NCBI GenBank assembly: GCA_000960865.2
Contig: JZWU02000005.1
Coordinates: 1-64,000 of the forward strand
DNA length: 64,000 nt
From: Vulcanisaeta sp. AZ3
Lineage (GTDB): Archaea > Thermoproteota > Thermoprotei > Thermoproteales > Thermocladiaceae
Reading direction: 5' to 3'
A model generated the notes under the pieces. The model was not told the origin of the DNA. It saw nothing but the letters and a program-made list of their open reading frames with translations, and did not search any database. Below, piece by piece: positions 3,823-44,472 of this stretch; position 1 is the first letter of the stretch, and each line of letters begins with the position of its first letter. A program made the position numbers and the translations under genes.

Positions 3823-4884
3823 GTGAAGTTCGCATTAAAGTGTTCCCCAGGACAGAGGATAGAGAGACGTAGCGAGAGGGTTGCTATTATTGGTGCTGGT
3901 CCTGCGGGCCTTGGTGCTGCAGGTTACTTAATATGTAAGGGATTTCAGGTTGATGTTTATGATAAATTGCCTGAACCAGGTGGATTAATGATATTCGGAA
4001 TCCCTGAGTATAGGGTTCCTAAGAAGAATGTGAGAACTGGTGTTAAGGAGCTCGTGGAGCTTGGTGTTAATTTCATACTTAAGACTAAAGTGGTTACAGA
4101 TGAGGAGGAGCATGTTGATGGTGATGATTTTGTTGAAAGTAAAGTTCTCCTTGAGGATTTAATTAATAAGTATAATGCCGTACTAATAGCCACTGGAACT
4201 TGGAAATCAAGAAACTTAGGCGTACCTGGCGAGAACCTCAGAGGTGTTTACCTAGCCCTTGACTACTTATATAGGATTTACACAAGCGAGTTGGGTTATC
4301 TACCTAAGTCGGTGATTTATCCAACGGGAAATAAGGTTGCCGTAATAGGGGCTGGCTTAACTGCAGTTGATGCGGCAATAGAAGCTCAGAGACAAGGAGC
4401 AAGGGAGGTCTATGTACTTTATAGGAGGACGATCAACGAAGCACCTGCGGGCAAGATGGAGATACAGAACTTAATTAAGAGGGGTATCAACTTCGTGGAG
4501 CTTGTGGGAATTACAGAAGTGTTGGGTAAGGATCACGTGGAGGCTGTTAGACTTATTAAGATGAAACTTGGTAGACCTGACAGGAGCGGTAGACCAGCCC
4601 CAGAGCCAATACCAGGTAGTGAGTACATTATGGAGATGGATAATGTAATAGCTGCTGTGGGTGAAGTACCAACACCACCCTTTAAGGATGGTTGCTGCGG
4701 AATTAGATTAACATCGCATGGAACAATAGATATAGATCAGAAACACAGAACCACGAGAAAGGGCGTATTTGCTGCTGGCGACGTGGCTACAGGACCAAGC
4801 CTAATAGGTAAGGCTTTAAAGAATGGTATTGATGCGGCCATGGGTATTGAGGAGTACATACTTAAGGGCGGCTGGAGAGAATGA
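3823..4884 (+). CDS. GltD-like FAD/NAD(P)H oxidoreductase (glutamate synthase small-subunit family)
   Basis: GAGPAGL, GGLMIFGIPEYR, second GAGLTAVD, YRR and FAAGD motifs; lacks the N-terminal Fe-S domain. Confidence 0.85.
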   Translation: MKFALKCSPGQRIERRSERVAIIGAGPAGLGAAGYLICKGFQVDVYDKLPEPGGLMIFGIPEYRVPKKNVRTGVKELVELGVNFILKTKVVTDEEEHVDGDDFVESKVLLEDLINKYNAVLIATGTWKSRNLGVPGENLRGVYLALDYLYRIYTSELGYLPKSVIYPTGNKVAVIGAGLTAVDAAIEAQRQGAREVYVLYRRTINEAPAGKMEIQNLIKRGINFVELVGITEVLGKDHVEAVRLIKMKLGRPDRSGRPAPEPIPGSEYIMEMDNVIAAVGEVPTPPFKDGCCGIRLTSHGTIDIDQKHRTTRKGVFAAGDVATGPSLIGKALKNGIDAAMGIEEYILKGGWRE

Positions 4885-11254: not shown

Positions 11255-11347
11255 GGCCCCGTAGCTCAGCCAGGATAGAGCGGCGGCCTCCTAACAAGGG
11301 CGAGGGAGAGCCGTAGGTCGTGGGTTCGAATCCCACCGGGGCCGCCA
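11255..11347 (+). tRNA. tRNA-Arg (anticodon CCU) with a ~15-nt intron at 37/38 (about 11294-11308)
   Basis: GGCCCCG/CGGGGCC acceptor stem; GCGGC-CT-CCT-A[intron]A-GCCGT; GGTTCGAATCC; ends GCCA. Confidence 0.9.
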
Positions 11348-11392: not shown

Positions 11393-11448
11393 CCCATCAG
11401 TGGTTATTTTATCTTCATTTCTCTGTCCTGGAAGGAATCATCATTTAA
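11393..11448 (-). ncRNA. C/D box sRNA
   Basis: C ATGATGA (11444-11438), guide TTCCTTCCAGGA, D' CAGA, C' ATGAAGA, guide TAAAATAACCA, D CTGA (11400-11397). Confidence 0.75.
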
Positions 11449-11577: not shown

Positions 11578-12560
11578 TCATGTAATTTTCACATGGTTAT
11601 AACTACCAAGGACCTTTAAGTAAGTGGTAACTTTATTCAACTCTCTAATAGCTTCAGTACAAATAACATCTCTTAACTGGCACTCGACTTCAAGTAGGAA
11701 ATCGTACCCCCACGGGCTCTGCCTATTGGGTTTCGAGTAAATCATTGATAAATTAAGACCTCTCTCAGCGAGGGGCCTAAGGGCATTATATAGGGCACCG
11801 GGTCTGTTGGGAATTGAGAATATGATTAGCGTTCTATCACCAACCATCGGAATGCGCTTACTGATTATTAGGAATCTCGTGTAATTAGGTCTATCTTCAA
11901 TGCCGCAAACCATGGCCTTTAAGCCATGTATCTCTGCGCCAAGCCTCGATGCTATAGCAGCCCTATTCTTAAACCCCTTTATCCTCTCTAAGGCCTCTGA
12001 GGTGGATTGTGTATATATCACTGATGCTCCGTGCCTTGTTATGAAATTCATAGCCTCGGAAATAGCATGAGGATGAGAGTATATCTCGGTTATCTCCTCC
12101 ATGGATTTCACGCAATCATTGACTATGAGACATAGATTTACCCTATACTCAACAGAGTACTTAATACCCACATCCCACTTTATCAATGAATCCATGGAAT
12201 CACCAACAACACCTGCCAAGTTATTCTCAATTGGTATTACACCAAAGCCACAATTATTATCGTAGACACACTTAACTACCTCCTCCACACTCCTCATAGG
12301 CAAATACTGCTTGCCTTCACCAAACAATCTAATTGCAACCTCATGTGAATAACTACCACTAGGTCCCAAAAACCCCACTGAATCATTAATTATATACTCA
12401 CTGAACAACCTAATTAGTATGGGTTCATGAACATTACTAATTAATTCCTTAAGCATTTCACTATCAACCAGACCACTGCTTAATACTTCCCTTAACTCAA
12501 CTAAGTTATTCTCAAGATTCTTTACCAGGTTTATTATTCTTTGAATTCCAGCTCGTTCAC
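11578..12560 (-). CDS. pheA: Prephenate dehydratase with ACT domain; promoter-proximal GTG 12560 is out of frame, first in-frame ATG is 12456
   Basis: FLGPSGSYS, PIEN, SHPHA, NYTRF and PGAL motifs. Confidence 0.88.
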
Positions 12561-12591
12561 ATTTGCCCAGTATATAGGTTATTTATAAGCA

Positions 12592-13614
12592 TTACTTAGC
12601 ACCCAATTTCCTAATTACCTCCTCTGTGAACTCTGTGGCCTTAGCATTACCACCTAGATCTGGTGTTAATTTAATTCCCTCACTCAACACCCTAATGACA
12701 GCATCCTCAACAGCTGCACCAGCCCTCACAAACCCCGAATCCCCTGTTCTTACACCCCACCACTTAAGCATCCACCCGGCACACAGTATCATGGCTGTTG
12801 GGTTAGCAATGCCCTTACCTGCTATGTCAAAGGCAGCTCCATGGACGGGTTCGAACATTGCCTTAACATCACCTATATTTGCAGATGGTGCTAATCCAAT
12901 GCTTCCAGTCACATATGCGGCTATATCGCTTAATATATCTCCATAGAGGTTTGTAGTTACTATTACATCGAAGTCCTGAGGCTTTCTAACAATATCCATG
13001 ACAGCAGCATCTATGTACATCTCATCAATAGCGATACTTGAGTAATTCTTAGCCACCTCTCTCACTGTATTTCTGAAGAGCCCATCACTCAGAGTAAGTA
13101 CGTTAGCCTTATGCACTATGGTAACCCTTCTCTTACGATTGAGAGCCAAATTCAGAGCCATCTTAGCGATCCTTTCGCTCGCTCTTCTAGTCACTAGCCT
13201 CAGAGCTATTGCTACATCATTAGTCAACATATACTCAGCCCTAATGTAAACATCCTCTGTATTCTCCCTAACAATAATTAAGTCAACACCATCCCTCACA
13301 GCCCTAACTCCAGGATAATTCCTTGCAGGTCTGATGTTTGCGTATAAATCCAAATCCCTCCTAAGCTTAACCACAACATCTCCAGCACTCTCACCAACAG
13401 GCCCCTTTAAGATTGCATCTGAAGACTCAATAATTGGCCAGTACTTATTAGGTAACGCCTCGCCATACCTCTTAACTGCCTCATCACCTGCCTCTACAAA
13501 CGTAAATTCGATATTTAATCCATACCTCACGGAGACCGCCTTTAGAACTTCGAGAGCTGATGAGACAACCTCAGGACCTACACCATCACCCTCGATTACT
13601 GCAACCTTCATCAT
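12592..13614 (-). CDS. leuB: 3-isopropylmalate/homoisocitrate dehydrogenase
   Basis: GDGVGPEV, VRENTE, HKANV, NLYGDILSD and FEPVHG motifs. Confidence 0.88.
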   Translation of the reverse strand: MMKVAVIEGDGVGPEVVSSALEVLKAVSVRYGLNIEFTFVEAGDEAVKRYGEALPNKYWPIIESSDAILKGPVGESAGDVVVKLRRDLDLYANIRPARNYPGVRAVRDGVDLIIVRENTEDVYIRAEYMLTNDVAIALRLVTRRASERIAKMALNLALNRKRRVTIVHKANVLTLSDGLFRNTVREVAKNYSSIAIDEMYIDAAVMDIVRKPQDFDVIVTTNLYGDILSDIAAYVTGSIGLAPSANIGDVKAMFEPVHGAAFDIAGKGIANPTAMILCAGWMLKWWGVRTGDSGFVRAGAAVEDAVIRVLSEGIKLTPDLGGNAKATEFTEEVIRKLGAK

Positions 13615-14050: not shown

Positions 14051-15232
14051 TTAAGGTTGCTGTGGAGAATATTTATTGCTCATCAAATCCCTTATTATTT
14101 GCTTAATATCTCCCTCGGTAATCCTAAAACCCGCATCACCTAATTCCTTAATTCTCTCTAGTATTTTATTTACTAAGACCTCGTGGGGCTCAATGCCCAT
14201 AGACCTAAGTACGAATTCTACAGAATGCCTACCACTATGCTTACCAATCACTATTTTACGGTTCATGCCAACACTCTCTGGACTTATTGGCTCATAAGTA
14301 ATCGGGTTGGATAACACACCATGTACGTGTATTCCAGATTCGTGAGAGAAGGCATTGGCACCAACAATGGCCTTATTCGGCGGCACTGGTATTTTAAACA
14401 ACCTAGATACCAAATCAGAGACTTCCTTTATCTTCTCGAACTTAATTCCAACGTTATAGTTTAACAGGAATTTCACGGCAGCTGCAATCTCCTCAAGTGC
14501 CGCATTACCAGCTCTCTCCCCAACACCGTTTATTGTACCATGCACTTGATCAGCCCCAGCCTCTATAGCTGTCACGCTATTGGCAACTGCCATTCCGAAG
14601 TCATCATGACAATGAACACTCAATAAATAATCACCCTTAACATTCTCCTTGACAAAACTAACAAGCCAAGCCATCTTACTCGGCCACATAACGCCCACCG
14701 TGTCGGCAATATCCAACCTATCAGCACCTGCATTAACAACCTCCTGGAAAACCCTTACGAGGAACTGCGGATCACTCCTAGTTGCATCCTCTGCACTAAA
14801 CTCCACAATCATACCATGAGACTTTGCGTATTCTACAGCTTCTACGGCGGTACTAACCACCTTCTCCCTATTCATCTTCAACTTATACTTCATGTGTATG
14901 TCTGATGTAGCTATGAAGATGTGTACAGCTCCAACGTCAGCATCAATGACCCTATTGATATCCTCTCTTCTCGTCCTAGCCAGAGCTATGACCTCGGTAT
15001 CAGTGACCTCCCTCGCTATATCCTTAACGGCCCTAAACTCACCATCGCTTACTATTGGAAAGCCAGCCTCTATTGAGTCAACACCCAACTCTTCAAGCTT
15101 AAGGGCTATGGCCAATTTATCCTCAGACCTCAGGGCAACACCAGGAGTTTGTTCGCCATCCCTTAGTGTCGTATCTAAGAACCTAACGTACCTACCACCT
15201 ACCGAACCCTGAACTACATTTTCCTGAGCAAT
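14051..15232 (-). CDS. leuA: 2-isopropylmalate synthase, short form without C-terminal regulatory domain; frame begins at ATT 15232
   Basis: DTTLRDGEQTPG lies upstream of the ORF-track start (15115); HCHDD, GERAGN and HESGIH motifs; adjacent to ilv/leu genes. Confidence 0.88.
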   Translation of the reverse strand: MAQENVVQGSVGGRYVRFLDTTLRDGEQTPGVALRSEDKLAIALKLEELGVDSIEAGFPIVSDGEFRAVKDIAREVTDTEVIALARTRREDINRVIDADVGAVHIFIATSDIHMKYKLKMNREKVVSTAVEAVEYAKSHGMIVEFSAEDATRSDPQFLVRVFQEVVNAGADRLDIADTVGVMWPSKMAWLVSFVKENVKGDYLLSVHCHDDFGMAVANSVTAIEAGADQVHGTINGVGERAGNAALEEIAAAVKFLLNYNVGIKFEKIKEVSDLVSRLFKIPVPPNKAIVGANAFSHESGIHVHGVLSNPITYEPISPESVGMNRKIVIGKHSGRHSVEFVLRSMGIEPHEVLVNKILERIKELGDAGFRITEGDIKQIIRDLMSNKYSPQQP

Positions 15233-15373: not shown

Positions 15374-15400
15374 ATGAGGTGCTTTATTCTTTACGTATAA
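15374..15400 (+). promoter_or_regulatory. Putative ilv leader peptide MRCFILYV*
   Basis: ATG about 30 nt after the CTTAAATA TATA box; its 8 codons include Ile, Leu and Val. Confidence 0.65.
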
Positions 15401-21049: not shown

Positions 21050-22176
21050 ATGGAAATGGAAACCAAGTACTAGATAGAGGCCTTTGGATTTCAAAGGTTG
21101 GGGGTTCCCTACTAACGAGAAAATCAACTCTTAGAACTATAAGCAGTGTTATTGGGAGAGATCTAAAGCCTGGCAGTAGATTAATCCTTGTGGTTTCAGC
21201 AATGAAGGGGGTAACGGACTTACTTATCAGAGCTCTAGATGAGCATAATCCTGCATTTATAGATGAAGCTGTGTCGATGTATGTTGATGAGGCGTTATAT
21301 CTTGAGTTAAAATCATATGCTAAGTTTCTGGAGTTTGTTAATGAGGAATTACGTAGGTTTGTGAATATAGATGAACCCTGGGTTAAGGATCATACTATTG
21401 TTCATGGAGAGTTATTGTCATCATTGCTTGTTGAGGGTATCTTAAATGATATAATTGGTGTTAGGGCTAAGGCGGTTTATGAACCTGGAATAGTGGTTAA
21501 GCAAGAGTGGGGTAATGCAAGTGTTATTCATGAGCTGAGTAATACCTTTGTTCGTGAAAGGTATGATGGATTGATTAGGAAGTACGATGTTGTAGTTGTA
21601 CCTGGATTCTTGGGTGTGACGTTGGATGGTAGGTATGCATCGTTGGGTAGGGGCGGCAGTGATTACACAGCTTCGTTGCTTGCTAACTATCTGAGTGCCT
21701 CAGGGCTGACGTTCTATACAGACAGTGGCGGTCTACTTAGTGGTGATCCTAAGGTTGTGAATGATCCTGTGCTCATTAGGGAGGTTTGTTATGAGGAGGC
21801 TTATGCGGCTGCGATGGTTGGCGCTAAGAAGTTCCATCCAAGGACCTTTGAACCATTACTTAATAGTAATGTTAGGATGTTAATAACAAGCCCGTGGCTT
21901 GATGTCGGTACTTATATAACTAATAAGTGTATTGACACACCTAAAATAGTTAGTCTTAGCGGTGATGGAAGGTCTCTTAAGGTTTCTGTGGTGGGTTATA
22001 ATGCAGCTAAGAGGGAAGATGTATTCAGTGAGGTTTATACTATTGCATCCTCGTACGGTATAAACAGTATTACGCATGATAACGATCACGTACTATCCAT
22101 GCCTGTGGATGATTATAAAATAGCATTAACCCTCGTTAGAGATATACATAGGTGGGTGAGAAAATGGATAAGTTGA
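21050..22176 (+). CDS. Aspartate kinase; ATG 21050 is out of frame and the kinase frame is reached by -1
   Basis: KVGGS (21094-21108) lies upstream of the first in-frame canonical start (21190); [15 protein letters not shown] and DP motifs. Confidence 0.88.
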
Positions 22177-24256: not shown

Positions 24257-25491
24257 ATGGGGATTGAAATGGAAACCAGGAATTAATAAGAAGGTCTCTA
24301 GACAAGTATGTACTTAAGTGCCCAAGGTGTGGCTATGAGGTTGAGGCAAATCCGTTCATAATGAGGTGCCCAAGGTGTGGTGAATTACTTGATGCTGAGT
24401 TAATAGCCGAAATGATTCATATTAGGTGGGATAGGCTGCACGGTAGGGGTGTTTGGAGATATGAGAGATTGCTTCCTAGATTAAATAGTGTGGTCACTAT
24501 GGGTGAAGGATCAACACCATTAATAAGACTCAAACAATTCTCTAATGCTTATGTTAAGTTTGAGGGGCTGAATCCAACGGGTTCCTTTAAGGATAGAGGA
24601 ATGACAATTGGTACATCATTAGCTTTAGCAATAGGTGCAAGAGGGATAATTGTGGCGTCTACAGGGAATACTGCAGCCTCGGCGGCAGCTTATTCAGCTA
24701 GGGCAGGCCTTGAGTGCTTGGTAGTGCTTCCTAGGGGTGGTGTGGCTAGGGGTAAGTTGGCTCAGTCTATGTTGCATAATGCACGTATATTAGAGGTTAC
24801 TGGGACCTTCGATAATGCCTTGGAGTATGTGCTGGATTCCGTGTTGAGTAATGGTGCTGTTAATGGTGTTAATTACTATCCACTTAACTCAATAAATCCA
24901 TGGAGACTAGAGGGTCAGAAAACAATTGCATATGAAATCGTTGAGGAGCTTGGTGTCCCTGACTTTGTGTTTGTTCCTGTGGGTAATGGCGGTAATATTT
25001 ACGCTATTTGGAAGGGATTTAGAGAATTGGTGGAGCTTGGTGTGATCGATCGTGTACCAAGGATGATGGGGGTGCAGGCTGAGGGGGCTAATCCAATGGT
25101 TAGGTATTGGAGAGGGCTTGGTGAGGCTAAGATTGAGAATCCGAGGACTGTAGCCTCAGCAATAAGGATTGGCAAACCAATTAATTGGTTTAGAGCCTTC
25201 AGGGCCGTTAAGTATAGTAATGGCACCTTCCTGGAGGTTAGCGATGAAGAGATATTAAATGCCCAGAGAGTACTTGGTAGGGAGGGTATAGGTGTTGAGC
25301 CGGCTAGTGCAGCATCGCTGGCAGGTTACTTAAGGGCGTTAAAAGACGGTCTTGTGGATAGGAATGATAAAGTGGTGCTAATAGCCACAGGGCATGCTCT
25401 TAAAGATCCCGATATACTAACTATGGGGAATGCGCAGTTTATGAGGGTGTCATCAATCAATGAATTAAGAACGTTAATTGCCACTAAGTAA
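24257..25491 (+). CDS. thrC: Threonine synthase; ATG 24257/24269 are out of frame and the enzyme frame is reached by -1
   Basis: NPTGSFKDRG, ASTGNT, PVGNGGN and EPASA motifs; the first CPRC of the Zn ribbon (24319-24330) precedes the first in-frame ATG. Confidence 0.9.
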
Positions 25492-27311: not shown

Positions 27312-27438
27312 CTCTCATTGACTACAAGATATGCCAAATTAATAAATATTTTCCTTAATGATACTAGGGGTAATACATTAACTATGTTCATTTAGAGAAA
27401 TACTTATATAGCCTATGTAAGCTGGAGTCTTTTCAGTG

Positions 27439-28307
27439 ATGGAACGGGAACCACGATTGGGCAAAGTTCAGGAGATAATAATGAAGTGACCATACTGTAT
27501 GATTTCGTGAGAACTGAGGAGAAGTTACTTGTTAATGAGTTCAGAAAGCTCGGTGTCAACCTGAGGTTGATAAATATTGATAAGCTATCACTAAGACTTG
27601 ATAGTGAGGTCAGCCTTGGAGTATCATTAGTTAGGCCAGTAAGCCATTTAAAGGCTAGTCTCGTGGCTAAGGTGCTTAATGCACACGGAGTTATTACAAT
27701 AAACAATGGTCTCGCCATAGAAAACGCTTGGAATAAGGCGGTAGCATTATCCATATTAGCAAAGTCCGGAATACCCATTGTGCCAACAAAGCTTCTATTC
27801 TCTGTGGAGTTTAACGATGATGGAATTCAGTATCCAGTTATTGTTAAGCCTGTCCATGGATCCTGGGGCAGATTAGTAAGCCTCGTGGGTGATATGGATG
27901 AGCTAAGGCTCGTGCTTAAACACAATGCTCTTGATAATGCTAATCCTAGAATTTACATGCTACAACCATTCATTGGTAATGGTAAAGATTATAGGGTCTT
28001 TGTTATTGGTGATGAGGTAGTGGCTTCAATGACTAGGTTACCTAGCGATGGCGATTGGCGCAGTAATGTAGCTAGAGGTGGTATTCCACGTGCCGTTAAA
28101 CTTAGCGATGATGCTTACGAATATGCAGTTAAGGCGGTTAAGGTTCTTGGGCTCGATTACGCTGGCGTTGATATGCTTCAAGGTCCAAATGGTTATTTGA
28201 TTAATGAGGTTAATGCAATACCTGAATTTAAGGGCTTAATGATAGCATCTGGCGTTAACATAGCACGTAAAATAGCTAAGTACGTAATAAACCTAGTCAG
28301 AAGGTGA
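27439..28307 (+). CDS. argX: Glutamate--LysW ligase ArgX-like; leader ATG 27439 is out of frame, in-frame GTG at 27486
   Basis: KPVHGSWGR, WRSNVARGG and NEVNAIPEF motifs; lacks the LysX-type IYR/NT signature. Confidence 0.75.
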
Positions 28308-35187: not shown

Positions 35188-35292
35188 TGCATAATCTAGT
35201 TCTTTAGGGTATATATACATTATGTATACATGACATGGGTATTAGAATCTTAGGGGCAAAGCTTATAAAATATTTAGAATTACGGAGTGTGA

Positions 35293-36373
35293 ATGATTCG
35301 GATTAAGAAGACGCTACTTAGTACTTCAGGATGGAAGTATATATCGTGGTTATGCCTTTGGTGCTGATGGTAATGCCGTTGGGGAGGTCGTCTTCACAAC
35401 AGCTAACGTTGGCTATCCTGAATCACTCACAGATCCGTCGTATAAGGGGCAAATACTCATATTCACAATGCCGCTAATCGGCAATTACGGCGTATCGCCA
35501 GACCAATGGGAGAGCAGCTCAATTCAAGTTAGTGGTATAGTTGTATTTGATGTAACATCACCAAGCCATTATACGTCAATAATGAGTCTTGATGAGTGGT
35601 TAAGGAGGGATGGTATACCTGGTGTCTTTAGGGTTGATACGAGGGCTATAACTATCAAGTTAAGGGAGCTGGGTGTTATGATGGGCGCTATAGCTGATAA
35701 TCCGGCTGAGGGGTTTAGGTTGATTAGAAGTGCTCCTCGTTATGATGATTTTGATTTCGTAAAGCTCGTGTCACCAAGTGACATAATTAATTATGATAAT
35801 AATGATGGACCATGTATAGGTATTGTGGATTGTGGCGTAAAAATGGGTATTGTGAGAAACTTACTAGCAAGAGGCGTTAGGGTTGTTAGATATCCTTGTC
35901 ATATGTGGTCCAGGGTTATTAACGAATGCGACGGTGTCGTCTTAAGCAACGGTCCAGGCAACCCAAATCTCTTGAACTTTCTCATAGATGCCGTGACAGA
36001 CATAATTATGGATAGAAAGCCAACCCTAGGTATATGCCTAGGTCACCAAGTAATAGCCCTTGGTGTGGGGGCGAGACTTTATAAGATGAAGTATGGACAC
36101 AGAGCGATAAACAAGCCTGTGCTAGACTTAATTAGGGGAAGAGTCTACGTGACAACTCACAACCATGGTTATGCTGTAGATCCGCAATCAATAAAGGGTA
36201 CGGGCTTTAAGATATGGGCAGTACAACCCGATGATAAGACTGTAGAGGGTTTGATACATGAGAAGTTACCAATAATAACTACGCAATTCCATCCAGAGGC
36301 TAGGCCTGGGCCCAATGATACTACTTGGATCTTTGATGAGTTCATAAAGTTAGTGATGAGGTATGGACATTAG
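35293..36373 (+). CDS. carA: Carbamoyl-phosphate synthase small subunit; ATG 35293 is out of frame and the enzyme frame is reached by +1
   Basis: YLVLQDG, GEVVFTT and GYPESLTDPSYKGQI all lie upstream of the first in-frame ATG (35468); SNGPGNP, GICLGHQ and QFHPE motifs. Confidence 0.9.
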
Positions 36374-39491: not shown

Positions 39492-40635
39492 TTACGATCT
39501 CTCCTCAATTGGTATATACTTAAGTCCAATGGGTCCTGTATACCTCTCTGTAGGTCTTATCAGCTTACCATTCATCTGCCAATACTCAAGGGTATGTGCT
39601 GTCCAACCAACCATTCTTGCCATTGCGAAGTTGGCGGGATTATACTCGGGTGGGAATCCTAGGAAGTAAAATATTAGTGATGTATATAGGTCAGTATTTG
39701 CATAAATCCCCTTACTACTTAGGTGCTTTTCCACAGCTCTTTCAAGAGCAAGAGTAGTTTCGTAAAGTTTAACATAATCACTACCTCCCTCCTTAGCCAG
39801 ATCACTGGCAATAGCCCTGAGGTAAGTAAGCCTTGGATCGGCATACTTCTTATACAATCTATGACCAAAGCCTATGATCTTCTCCCCACGCCTCAACTTC
39901 TCCACCACATAGTTCTCAGCTTTAGATGGATCGGTGGCTTCCATTATTGTCCTCAGGGCTTCGAAACTCGCTCCTCCATGTAACGGACCCTTAAGACCCG
40001 ATAAAGCAGCTACCATAACCGAATAGATATCACTCCATGTCGAGGCCACAGTGACTGCTGTAAAGGAGGAGTTATTCATTCCATGTTCCATGTATGTTAT
40101 GAACATTGCCTCAAGAGCCCTTAACTCAGTGGTGCTAGGCTCCTTATTAAAGAACATGTAGAAATAATCGGCCACGTGACCTAAATCATCCCGTGGCCTT
40201 GGTATAATTCCATCACTACTTAATCTATAGTACGTAGCCACTATGGTGGGTGCCTTTGCTATGATAGATATGGCCTTCTCATAATCATTCTTACCCTTAC
40301 TAAAAGCCTCCTTTATCCAAGGTGCCTAAATGATTGATTGAAAGTCTGAGTACATCAATCGGACGTAGACCTCTCGGTAACTCTCTAAGTAAACTCAATA
40401 CCTCATTCGGTAGTTCTCTATTCATGGCCAACAAATCCTTAAAACTTGCTAGCCCCTCCTTATTGGGCAACTTCCCATTTAATAATAAATAGGCTACCTC
40501 CTCAAAGTTAGCCTTTACGGCAAGTTCTGATAAATCATAACCCCTATAGTAAATTTTCGCATTATCAAGGTCTATGAAACATACTTTACTCTCTTTAACT
40601 ATTATTCCCTCAAGACCCCAAGCAACTGTTGCCAT
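39492..40635 (-). pseudogene. gltA: Si-citrate synthase split by a +1 frameshift near 40300-40316
   Basis: N-part has GLEG..IYYRGY..FEEVAYLL; C-part has EHGMN, GPLHGGA, GFGHRLY and NTD; frames join as LDK|EAFSKGKNDYEKAISIIAKAPTIVA. Confidence 0.8.
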
Positions 40636-43258: not shown

Positions 43259-44472
43259 TTAGTTCTTATGCCTAGCCCTAAATGCTGTTAATGAGTGCAT
43301 TGTGTGCATTTTAATGAAGCCTCTAGCTTCCTCCTCGCTTGGGTACCAACCACCTATGTAATCTACTAACTCCTTACTGTAGCTTGCATATGGGCTTTCC
43401 CTACCTACTATTGTTAATCCACCAAGCACCCTAATCCTCACTTTACCGCTAATCCACTTATTCATTGACCTAATAAGCTGCTCTAACTCTTCACGCAATG
43501 GCTCATGCCAAAGCCCTTGATAAACAAGATCTGTCCAGGTCTGATCCACAATCTTCTTAAACCTATACTCCAATGGTGTATAGATTAACTTTTCAAGATC
43601 CTTGTGAACCTCTATTAGCGTTAAGGCAGCAGGCGCTTCATAGACCTCCCTGGACTTAAAGCCCACAACTCTATTCTCCACATGGTCAATCCTACCAAAA
43701 CCGTGCATACCAACGATTCTATTTAACGTGGTTATTATGCTCACAAGATCCATCCTCTCGCCGTTAACAGCTATGGGTAAGCCCTCCTTGAACTCAATCT
43801 CTAGATTTAGTGGTTCATGTACCTTCTCTAGGGGGATCGTCCATTTGAATGCATCTTCAGGTACTTCCACAGATGGATCGTCTATCTCATGGCCCTCAAT
43901 GCTCCTCGACCATAGATTATCATCTATACTGAACCTGCTGTGTATGTTGGGTATTGGTATGTTGTTCCTTCTGGCATACTCAATCTCACTGGCCCTATCC
44001 ATATTCCAGATCTTGGCTGGTTCTATGATCATGAGATCAGGTGCTAATGCCATGAGGGCTTCATTAAATCTAACCTGGTCATTACCCTTAGACGTGGAGC
44101 CGTGGGCCACTGCATCGCAACCCTCCCTTTTAGCAACTTCAACAATTCTCTCAGCGATTAATGGTCTAGCTAATGCTGTACCTAATGGATACTTATCCTC
44201 GTAGAGAGCATTTGCCATTATCGCCGTGGCTACTGGGCCGTTGGCAAAGTCTTGCCTCGCATCTATAGTAATGTGCTTCGTAGCACCAGCTTTGTAAGCT
44301 CTTCTCTCAATGTCCTCAAAATCATCATCCTGACCAACATTGACCGTGACTGTTATAACCTCTGCATTAAACTTACTCCTTAACCAATGAATTGCAACTG
44401 TGGTGTCTAAACCTCCTGAGAATGCTAAGACAATTTTACCTGGCTTTTTGTGCTCCGGTTTAAATTATTCAC
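43259..44472 (-). CDS. argG: Argininosuccinate synthase; GTG 44472 is out of frame and the enzyme frame is reached by -1
   Basis: KIVLAFSGGLDT PP-loop lies upstream of the first in-frame start (44218); HGSTSKGNDQVRF and KSREVYEAP motifs. Confidence 0.92.

Follow-up and report, generated by a model that had tools for sequence, protein, structure and literature searches.

The bacterial prfB gene, which encodes RF2, is controlled by an autoregulatory +1 frameshift that senses a stop codon and RF2 and relies on an upstream Shine-Dalgarno stimulator, and bacterial infC is regulated through an AUU start codon that is led by a Shine-Dalgarno sequence and discriminated against by IF3. In archaea, the alpha-L-fucosidase gene fucA of Saccharolobus solfataricus is frameshifted at a classic slippery heptamer. 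According to excerpts of a 2021 review (PMC8211752), fucA is the only archaeal -1 case reported. In enterobacteria, pheL-pheA is subject to leader-peptide transcription attenuation (excerpts of PMC3082878 and PMC5009743), the translation of a short leader open reading frame (ORF) ahead of pheA reporting the supply of Phe-tRNA. Leftward frameshifting at "hungry" codons, a one-tRNA slippage in the ribosomal peptidyl (P) site, goes back to Gallant and Lindsley 1992 as cited in PMC8211752 and PMC5009743, and the regime limited by aminoacyl-tRNA is described as independent of downstream structures in the excerpted part of PMC8211752. Other leader ORFs act as sensors in bacteria, such as that of ermC, where a drug-induced frameshift acts by unfolding an mRNA structure (excerpt of PMC5009743), and the leaderless polycysteine short ORFs of mycobacteria that answer to one amino acid (excerpt of bioRxiv 10.1101/834739). 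The locus set against these systems here is the pheA gene of the archaeon Vulcanisaeta sp. AZ3, carried on the minus strand of the 64,000 nucleotides (nt) that open contig JZWU02000005.1 and that are referred to, as a whole, as the window. Its enzyme frame is preceded by, and overlaps, an eight-codon leader in another frame, and the reading favoured here, with a probability of about 0.55, is that PheA is made by a phenylalanine (Phe)-responsive -1 frameshift at the leader site G GAA TTC. Searches of the literature open without subscription found no description of such a pheA leader, and the excerpted 2016 review (PMC5009743) discusses hungry codons, the ermC leader and pheL and names no natural amino-acid-sensing frameshift in those parts.

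The elements of the locus are as follows.

12581..12589, minus strand: TATA box CTTATAAAT, read directly and invariant across an alignment of ten loci.
12531..12560, minus strand: leader ORF GTG AAC GAG CTG GAA TTC AAA GAA TAA TAA, giving MNELEFKE and a double stop.
12543..12549, minus strand: proposed -1 shift site G GAA TTC, with GAA in the P site and TTC (Phe) in the aminoacyl (A) site.
11578..12549, minus strand: pheA reading frame, from the GGA of the shift site through the stop.
12457..12546, minus strand: N-terminal extension of 30 codons, from ATT up to ATG 12456, taken from the orthologue alignment.
12454..12456, minus strand: first canonical in-frame start ATG, giving the 292-residue protein P0002 of the protein collection.
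11854..12378, minus strand: PDT domain (PF00800, 6.2e-48).
11647..11829, minus strand: ACT domain, amino-acid-binding and regulatory (PF01842, 1.2e-09).

Read directly from the window, minus-strand positions 12560-12534 are GTG AAC GAG CTG GAA TTC AAA GAA TAA, which translate as VNELEFKE as read, or MNELEFKE as a peptide of eight codons; a first TAA occupies 12536-12534 and a second 12533-12531. The minus-strand gene on the 5' side, isopropylmalate/isohomocitrate-dehydrogenase-like, ends at 12592 and the TATA box then follows, the end of its octamer lying 21 nt from the leader GTG. This distance is 21-23 nt in all ten related pheA loci, and 17-25 nt separate TATA box and start for leaderless long ORFs elsewhere in the window; transcription of pheA probably begins at or beside GTG 12560, which would make the mRNA leaderless. 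The enzyme frame, at -1 to that of the leader, runs open between 12582 and 11578, and the first ATG, GTG or TTG in it is ATG 12456. An earlier note on this DNA had given the TATA box at 12589, a leader from GTG 12560 to a TAA ending at 12534, a -1 frame running open into PheA and an in-frame ATG at 12456; all of these are exact on the minus strand, the open stretch from GGA 12549 to ATG 12456 measuring 31 codons and that ATG being the first canonical start of the enzyme frame. By itself GGAATTY is not enriched in the window (29 matches against 22.6 expected), and a 93-nt stretch of the same composition remains open in 3.6% of shuffles; the leader owes its significance to its position, at a set distance from the TATA box, and to its conservation, and not to the heptamer alone.

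That conservation was assessed across 42 crenarchaeal pheA loci, 41 from a scan of genome contigs plus the window (labels such as L001 denote members of this set). In 31 of them, pheA is preceded by a short leader in another frame, and a ribosome reading it could pass into the enzyme only through a -1 shift: ten have the form start-N9-GAA-TTY, five have CAA-TTY, 14 of Sulfolobales/Acidilobales type have (A/T)TG GAA TTT, and two have AAA TAT; nine loci have no such leader and ordinary starts. The claim of the earlier note that a leader ends just past G-GAA-TTC with the -1 frame running into PheA is thus supported by recurrence in 31 of 42 loci. The first ten form a clade of Vulcanisaeta, Caldivirga and the window's lineage, and share a layout of start codon, three codons that vary, GAA TTY with a stop either directly after it or two codons on, and GGA ATT in the enzyme frame; the start stands exactly four codons ahead of GAA in all ten (GTG in nine, ATG in one), and GGAATT is the longest invariant block of their alignment apart from the TATA box. 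The nearest locus, L001 (67% protein identity), carries TTATAAAT and then GTG AAC AAC CTG GAA TTC AAG AAC TAA, with pheA at -1. Of the 31 leaders, 29 present a Phe codon in the A site (that of L008 has two Phe codons), and these 29 all have ATT, never ATA or ATC, as the Ile codon that overlaps it. The residue after this Ile varies (Q, S, L) in the Vulcanisaeta/Caldivirga/window lineage, its codon always beginning with a pyrimidine and so keeping TTY. The leader start is always ATG, GTG or TTG, and the enzyme-frame codon that overlaps it varies (N, D, H, L, V; Sulfolobales). Nine loci of Sulfolobales/Acidilobales type have no canonical in-frame start ahead of the LGPxGS motif; the same is true of L036 and L037, which carry a variant leader, ATG TCG GTT CTG (AAG or GTA) AAA TAT, at about 3995-4030 and about 2573-2610, respectively, with ATA as the Ile codon. 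In seven of seven Sulfolobaceae loci the third positions of GAT CCA NAT GGA ATT are invariant, with the N residue changing, which points to a constraint at the RNA level; the GATCCA stretch is presumably complementary to the 3' region of 16S rRNA. Taken as a whole, the leader is a real and conserved feature and is almost certainly functional.

Two members of the set are irregular. At about 4008-4016, L003 has one C fewer than L016 (GGCCGC against GGCGC), which moves its pheA to the third frame; it was counted with its clade despite this likely 1-nt draft error. The pheA ORF of L009 is truncated at 206 codons and resembles a draft-assembly indel. Both warn that single loci are unreliable for frame calls.

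The protein is a prephenate dehydratase with the PDT and ACT domains of PheA: on the translation P0001, Pfam places PDT at residues 69-243 and ACT at residues 252-312, and NCBIfam NF008865 (prephenate dehydratase) matches at 1.2e-58, its 198.5 bits lying under the curated cut-off of 219. No Pfam match to the chorismate mutase domain CM_2 was found in window PheA at E <= 1; a bifunctional P-protein is rejected, CM_2 being absent and the N-terminal 68 residues being modelled as one long and two short helices. The N-terminus was compared in an alignment of 20 proteins, from which the structure model was also built (mean predicted local distance difference test score, pLDDT, of 88). Closer relatives in the protein collection are longer than the 292-residue P0002 of the window and cover 89-97% of the stop-to-stop translation. 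Upstream of ATG 12456, LVKNLENNLVELREVL of the window aligns with MALVRDIEDKIARLRSAL and MNLIKQSEESISRLRSIL of orthologues, the extension matching their N-termini through the motif E..L..LR..L; residues 2-35 of P0001 are predicted to form one long helix (pLDDT about 83-91), which a start at ATG 12456 would delete, PDT and ACT being retained. The comparison of orthologue N-termini that the earlier note had suggested thus finds a homologous helix upstream of ATG 12456, and the first canonical in-frame start falls at differing codons among the listed loci (6, 15, 18, 21, 30, 31); for both reasons, pheA probably does not begin at ATG 12456. Constraint on the extension is weak (12 of 31 residues identical to L001); it is open in all loci of the clade, and its sole indel against Caldivirga is of 3 nt. 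The three Caldivirga loci, compared from ATT to a later ATG or ATT of the same frame, show the synonymous pairs CTA/TTA, AAT/AAC and GTA/GTC, plus CAA/AGG (Q/R). The pattern of change indicates that the enzyme frame is probably translated from directly after ATT.

Evidence on the slip itself comes from the base that precedes the P-site codon (N0), which equals the first base of that codon (N1): among loci in which N0 lies outside the start codon, all ten with GAA in the P site have G here and all seven with CAA have C, an agreement of N0 and N1 in 17 of 17. The G is held within CTG, CAG, TCG and CCG and the C within AGC, TTC, CCC and CAC, eight different codons in all; the slip contexts of L036 and L037 are G AAA and A AAA. 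Such covariation is predicted by a one-tRNA -1 slip in the P site, and by neither an ATT start nor a plain upstream ORF, and the pheA site has what one-tRNA slippage needs, a P-site codon that should be able to re-pair one base upstream. A one-tRNA -1 slip is favoured because of this covariation, the leaderless-like position of the leader start and the translation of the enzyme frame after ATT. No conserved RNA structure was found downstream of the site (0 pairs in nine sequences; z-score 0.38).

In the proposed mechanism, ribosomes would start on the leaderless pheA mRNA solely in the leader frame, at GTG 12560, and four codons in would hold tRNA-Glu on GAA in the P site with the Phe codon TTC in the A site. 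Were Phe-tRNA to arrive promptly, Phe, two further codons and the double stop would be read, and MNELEFKE would be released with no PheA made. Were it scarce, the A site would stay empty and the peptidyl-tRNA-Glu would move back by one base, off GAA and onto GGA, pairing again at positions one and three with a G.U in the middle; decoding after the slip would have GGA in the P site and ATT in the A site, so that Ile would enter next and the product would be MNELE-IQRIINLVK..., which is PheA. The leader would then sense the supply of Phe at the level of translation. The anatomy, its conservation and the covariation at the site are observed; the slip and its response to Phe are what we infer from this arrangement, and the sensor reading is preferred because it is the sole model that gives regulation of the right sign: a stall in an ordinary upstream ORF (uORF) would cover ATT and lower PheA.

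In comparison with canonical -1 programmed ribosomal frameshifting, the conserved overlap of reading frames in 0 and -1 is present at 31 of 42 loci, but tandem slippage is rejected, since G GAA TTC is not of the form X XXY YYZ, an A-site tRNA-Phe cannot re-pair on ATT, and a stimulatory hairpin or pseudoknot 5-9 nt downstream was not found (0 conserved pairs in the nine sequences, z 0.38). The locus resembles prfB in that a short first ORF ends right after the shift site and in that the product would relieve the scarcity; it differs in that prfB shifts by +1 at a stop codon read by RF2, whereas the pheA leader would shift by -1 at a sense codon awaiting an aminoacyl-tRNA. A +1 shift of the prfB or antizyme type is rejected on direction, and a shared feedback logic is again something we infer. 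With pheL the window leader shares a short upstream ORF holding a cognate codon (MNELEFKE), placed before pheA. In pheL, as the excerpts cited for it above describe it, runs of Phe codons and terminator/antiterminator hairpins act on transcription and frameshifting is judged incidental, whereas the window leader has a single Phe codon and no conserved structure and overlaps the enzyme frame; a pheL-type attenuator is rejected, as there is one Phe codon, no codon run and no conserved alternative structures were found. The hungry-codon shift is the closest in mechanism, being, in the excerpts cited above, a -1 P-site slip while the A site waits, with re-pairing in the -1 codon and no downstream structure; those excerpts present it as a starvation error or laboratory phenomenon and name no natural gene in which it controls the matching enzyme. 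The fucA case is likewise a -1 shift in an archaeon, by which two ORFs yield a single enzyme (excerpt of PMC8211752), but its shift lies inside the gene and is not tied to amino-acid supply. The ermC and mycobacterial leaders are also sensors but, in the excerpts, act on a separate downstream ORF without a trans-frame fusion. As for infC, it is the closest parallel for a start at ATT, being a conserved non-AUG start used for regulation; the window ATT differs in lacking a Shine-Dalgarno context and in having a conserved out-of-frame start upstream.

Several biosynthetic ORFs of the window miss N-terminal positions of their NCBIfam profiles if begun at the first canonical start, and the 5' ends of the genes for aspartate kinase, thrC and argG have short leaders, the enzyme at -1 and matching A-site codons, which speaks for a sensor. 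The leaders and short ORFs of the window, with their proposed shift sites and A-site codons, are the following.

21050-21073, plus strand: aspartate kinase leader ATG GAA ATG GAA ACC AAG TAC TAG (MEMETKY and stop), shift site 21058-21064, A site Thr.
24257-24289, plus strand: thrC leader ATG GGG ATT GAA ATG GAA ACC AGG AAT TAA TAA, shift site 24271-24277, A site Thr.
44425-44472, minus strand: argG leader GTG AAT AAT TTA AAC CGG ... TAG (MNNLNRSTKSQVKLS and stop), shift site 44455-44461, A site Arg.
35289-35306, plus strand: carA leader GTG AAT GAT TCG GAT TAA (MNDSD and stop), 19 nt past a TATA box.
15214-15232, minus strand: leader of a leuA/homocitrate-synthase-like gene, TTG CTC AGG AAA ATG TAG (MLRKM and stop), which would need a -1 shift.
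15374-15400, plus strand: short ORF ATG AGG TGC TTT ATT CTT TAC GTA TAA (MRCFILYV and stop), 22 nt past a TATA box.
27436-27489, plus strand: uORF VMEREPRLGKVQEIIMK and stop, with two Arg codons, its TGA overlapping the GTG start (GTGA) of an ArgX-like gene.

The aspartate kinase leader ATG is preceded by an AGGTGA motif, and the enzyme frame (GGA AAC CAA ...) has no canonical start until GTG 21190, beyond the KVGGS motif; an in-frame ATT lies just ahead of SKVGGS, and an ATT start is a rival there too. The thrC leader starts 20 nt past a TATA box with the enzyme frame at -1, and the annotated ATG 24361 comes only after the first CxxC of the thrC zinc ribbon; in the closest relatives (80-81% identical), as in the window, the gene call begins at the downstream Met. 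In argG, the Arg codon is the sixth of the leader, the same place as Phe in that of pheA; its context is A AAC and the enzyme is at -1. The first canonical start of argG (44218) comes 60 codons after the SGGLDT motif. Phe makes up 3.2% of codons in window ORFs, and the prior of each codon match is a few per cent. The earlier note had seen the same context at Thr and Arg sites; this holds for aspartate kinase and thrC (ATG GAA ACC) and for argG (A AAC CGG), but not for the ArgX-like gene (a second LysX-like gene, probably ArgX), which has a normal GTG start coupled to its uORF. A frameshift at that Arg site is rejected, as the protein begun at GTG 27486 matches the LysX profile from position 2 onwards and this GTG is overlapped by the stop of the uORF; this is translational coupling. 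The carA enzyme frame lies at -1 (GGA TTA AGA AGA CGC ... YLVLQDGSIYRG), and 52 profile positions are missing from a start at ATG 35468; three Arg codons follow in the enzyme frame. The leuA-like gene has no canonical in-frame start ahead of its RDGEQ motif, its open frame beginning with an ATT that the leader overlaps; a cross-check in L001 found no leuA-like gene upstream there. MRCFILYV, about 100 nt upstream of ilvB and overlapping the motif CTGATGAGG, looks like a branched-chain leader peptide of leaderless type, with its Ile, Leu and Val codons; ilvB has its own AGGTGATC motif ahead of ATG 15485. A scan for GGAA leaders, which covered the flanks of the 41 loci, gave 27 matches: 18 at pheA, six in the window (two each at aspartate kinase, thrC and the ArgX-like gene) and three others; six of the 27 have an in-frame start two to three codons later, which is taken as chance. 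A broader scan gave 50 candidates, its sole addition being a conserved element before Sulfolobales ilvA at which no shift is required.

A number of observations weigh against a Phe-responsive shift. In-frame NNG GAA TTY occurs six times in ordinary window ORFs against 3.0 expected, with no sign of avoidance; the heptamer, being common in ORFs, therefore cannot be a strong shift site alone, and proximity to the 5' end or starvation would matter. Re-pairing at the middle position would be only G.U for GAA and a C.U mismatch in the CAA clade. Over the 31 codons upstream of ATG 12456, differences from L001 at codon positions 1/2/3 number 13/11/13, without an excess at third positions. L018 and L028 retain GTG-N9-CAA but have ATG in place of ATT, which turns the A-site codon into TGG, and in L036 and L037 it is Tyr, not Phe. 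Many annotated Sulfolobales PheA start at upstream in-frame canonical codons (MVDP[ND]GIYYLGP...), at varying distances, and public annotation also uses ATT: P0128 corresponds to L014 from ATT (100% from residue 2) and P0135 to L017 (99.6%). In the other genes, where thrC of the window reads TTA ATA its Vulcanisaeta orthologues carry a canonical Met, the carA leader has a stop in the A site (G GAT TAA) and no cognate codon, none is evident in the leuA-like leader (G AAA ATG), and the ArgX-like gene needs no shift.

Annotation from ATT also favours the chief competing explanation, an unlikely one in our estimate, in which PheA initiates at the in-frame ATT (12546-12544) and the out-of-frame ORF is a by-product or a competing uORF. 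The ATT stands without variation in 29 loci, its place being taken by ATG in L018 and L028; of the 61 Sulfolobales-type proteins listed, nine have MYYLGP as their first residues, and M-YYLGP would suit as the N-terminus of a PDT. Such a start leaves unexplained the invariant GGA or CCA before ATT together with the N0 = N1 covariation, the pyrimidine kept after ATT, and the conserved ATG, GTG or TTG of the other frame at a leaderless distance from the TATA box; the ATT would lie 14 nt inside the predicted transcript with no Shine-Dalgarno motif seen, L036 and L037 have ATA and aspartate kinase and thrC have AAC at the equivalent place, and a ribosome stalled at the Phe codon of a uORF would cover ATT and give regulation of the wrong sign. 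It is just as unlikely that the -1 shift is real but constitutive, serving a fixed low output of PheA or "correcting" an indel irrespective of Phe. The anatomy and the covariation concern the slip and not its regulation, TTY is partly forced by the enzyme-frame codons (ATT and then Tyr in Sulfolobales), and exceptions exist in the Tyr of L036 and L037 and the stop of the carA leader; but where the residue after Ile varies, in the Vulcanisaeta/Caldivirga/window lineage, a pyrimidine still keeps TTY, in pheA, aspartate kinase, thrC and argG the A-site codon is one for the amino acid of the pathway, and a high constitutive rate at a motif common in ordinary ORFs would be costly.

Somewhat less probable still is that the leader is an ordinary uORF and that PheA arises by reinitiation near its stop or from an independent start at ATG 12456. 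Candidates for reinitiation do stand next to the leader stop (ATA ATA at 12538-12533; ATG in L016, L004 and L006), the enzyme-frame codon overlapping the leader TAA is ATG, ATT, ATA or ACG in six non-Caldivirga loci, and TAATG overlaps are classic coupling signals, the ArgX-like gene being so coupled by GTGA; yet the first base of the overlapping codon is forced by TAA, the synonymous-only change upstream of the Caldivirga ATG indicates that this part is translated, and in Sulfolobales the leader stop falls inside the essential YYLGP motif with no start after it. The 292-residue product from ATG 12456 would retain PDT and ACT, but the first canonical in-frame starts lie at non-conserved positions and neither a Shine-Dalgarno motif nor a TATA box was seen ahead of ATG 12456; moreover, Phe stalling on a uORF would lower PheA and not raise it. 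Finally, the earlier note had itself cautioned that an A missing from the AAA run would also account for the frame offset. Such a sequencing error, or a recent inactivating frameshift that made pheA a pseudogene, is very improbable. The window does contain an ordinary-looking internal frame break in citrate synthase, and draft loci show likely 1-nt errors (L003 against L016); a missing A is refuted by L001, which has AAG AAC for AAA GAA, hence no A run, and the same frame offset, and the start-N9-GAA-TTY layout with a -1 enzyme frame is shared by nine more loci of Vulcanisaeta, Caldivirga and relatives. The offset recurs in 30 further loci beyond L001, from different genera and assemblies, and the enzyme frame remains open and homologous, unlike that of a pseudogene.

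Several other observations were made in the window and at the comparison loci. The citrate/2-methylcitrate synthase gene has, at about 40300-40320 on the minus strand, an internal frame break of +1 type at GAT AAA GGA GGC TTT TAG, which looks like an ordinary frameshift mutation or an assembly error, unlike the 5' leaders. Around the pheA site, Rfam returned nothing above threshold except a tRNA gene at 11255-11344 on the plus strand (59 bits), missed by ARAGORN, 90 nt long and probably intron-bearing; at 11395-11448 on the minus strand there are weak matches resembling C/D-box small RNAs, below the gathering score. In Sulfolobales, an element CTCGATCNCTGA-N2-4-(T)GATGA-N-GGGCAGGGTTTT is conserved upstream of the threonine-dehydratase-like gene that adjoins pheA; it resembles C/D-box or k-turn motifs and overlaps a short ORF M-x-A-G-F-Y/S, whose stop overlaps the ATG of the gene in L023. 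It lies at these positions.

L017, 2819-2880: CTCGATCNCTGA...GGGCAGGGTTTT element.
L020, about 2460-2520: the same element.
L022, about 2720-2780: the same element.
L023, 2671-2730: the same element.
L029, 740-800: the same element.

To our knowledge, how archaea match amino-acid synthesis to supply is largely unknown. The pheA, aspartate kinase, thrC and argG genes are annotated as N-terminally truncated, from ATT, or from a downstream Met that removes essential motifs, and such unsatisfactory start annotation misleads pathway reconstruction. More broadly, and tentatively, as a view that we hold with somewhat less than even confidence, the output of amino-acid biosynthetic enzymes in many Thermoproteota (Thermoproteales, Sulfolobales, Acidilobales) may be governed by "frameshift attenuation", in which a mini-ORF, leaderless or led by a Shine-Dalgarno sequence, would set a codon for the end product in the A site beside a slip-prone N-NAN, and only ribosomes awaiting the scarce aminoacyl-tRNA would slip by -1 and make the enzyme; the cases would be Phe for pheA, Thr for aspartate kinase and thrC, and Arg for argG. 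If true, this would be a second and much more widespread case of archaeal -1 recoding, where the excerpted 2021 review (PMC8211752) knew one, and the first instance in nature of hungry-codon frameshifting being put to use as a sensor. It would also provide a sensor of charged tRNA of only a few codons, down to three in Sulfolobales (AUG GAA UUU), and a regulon-wide archaeal counterpart of bacterial attenuation and T-boxes.

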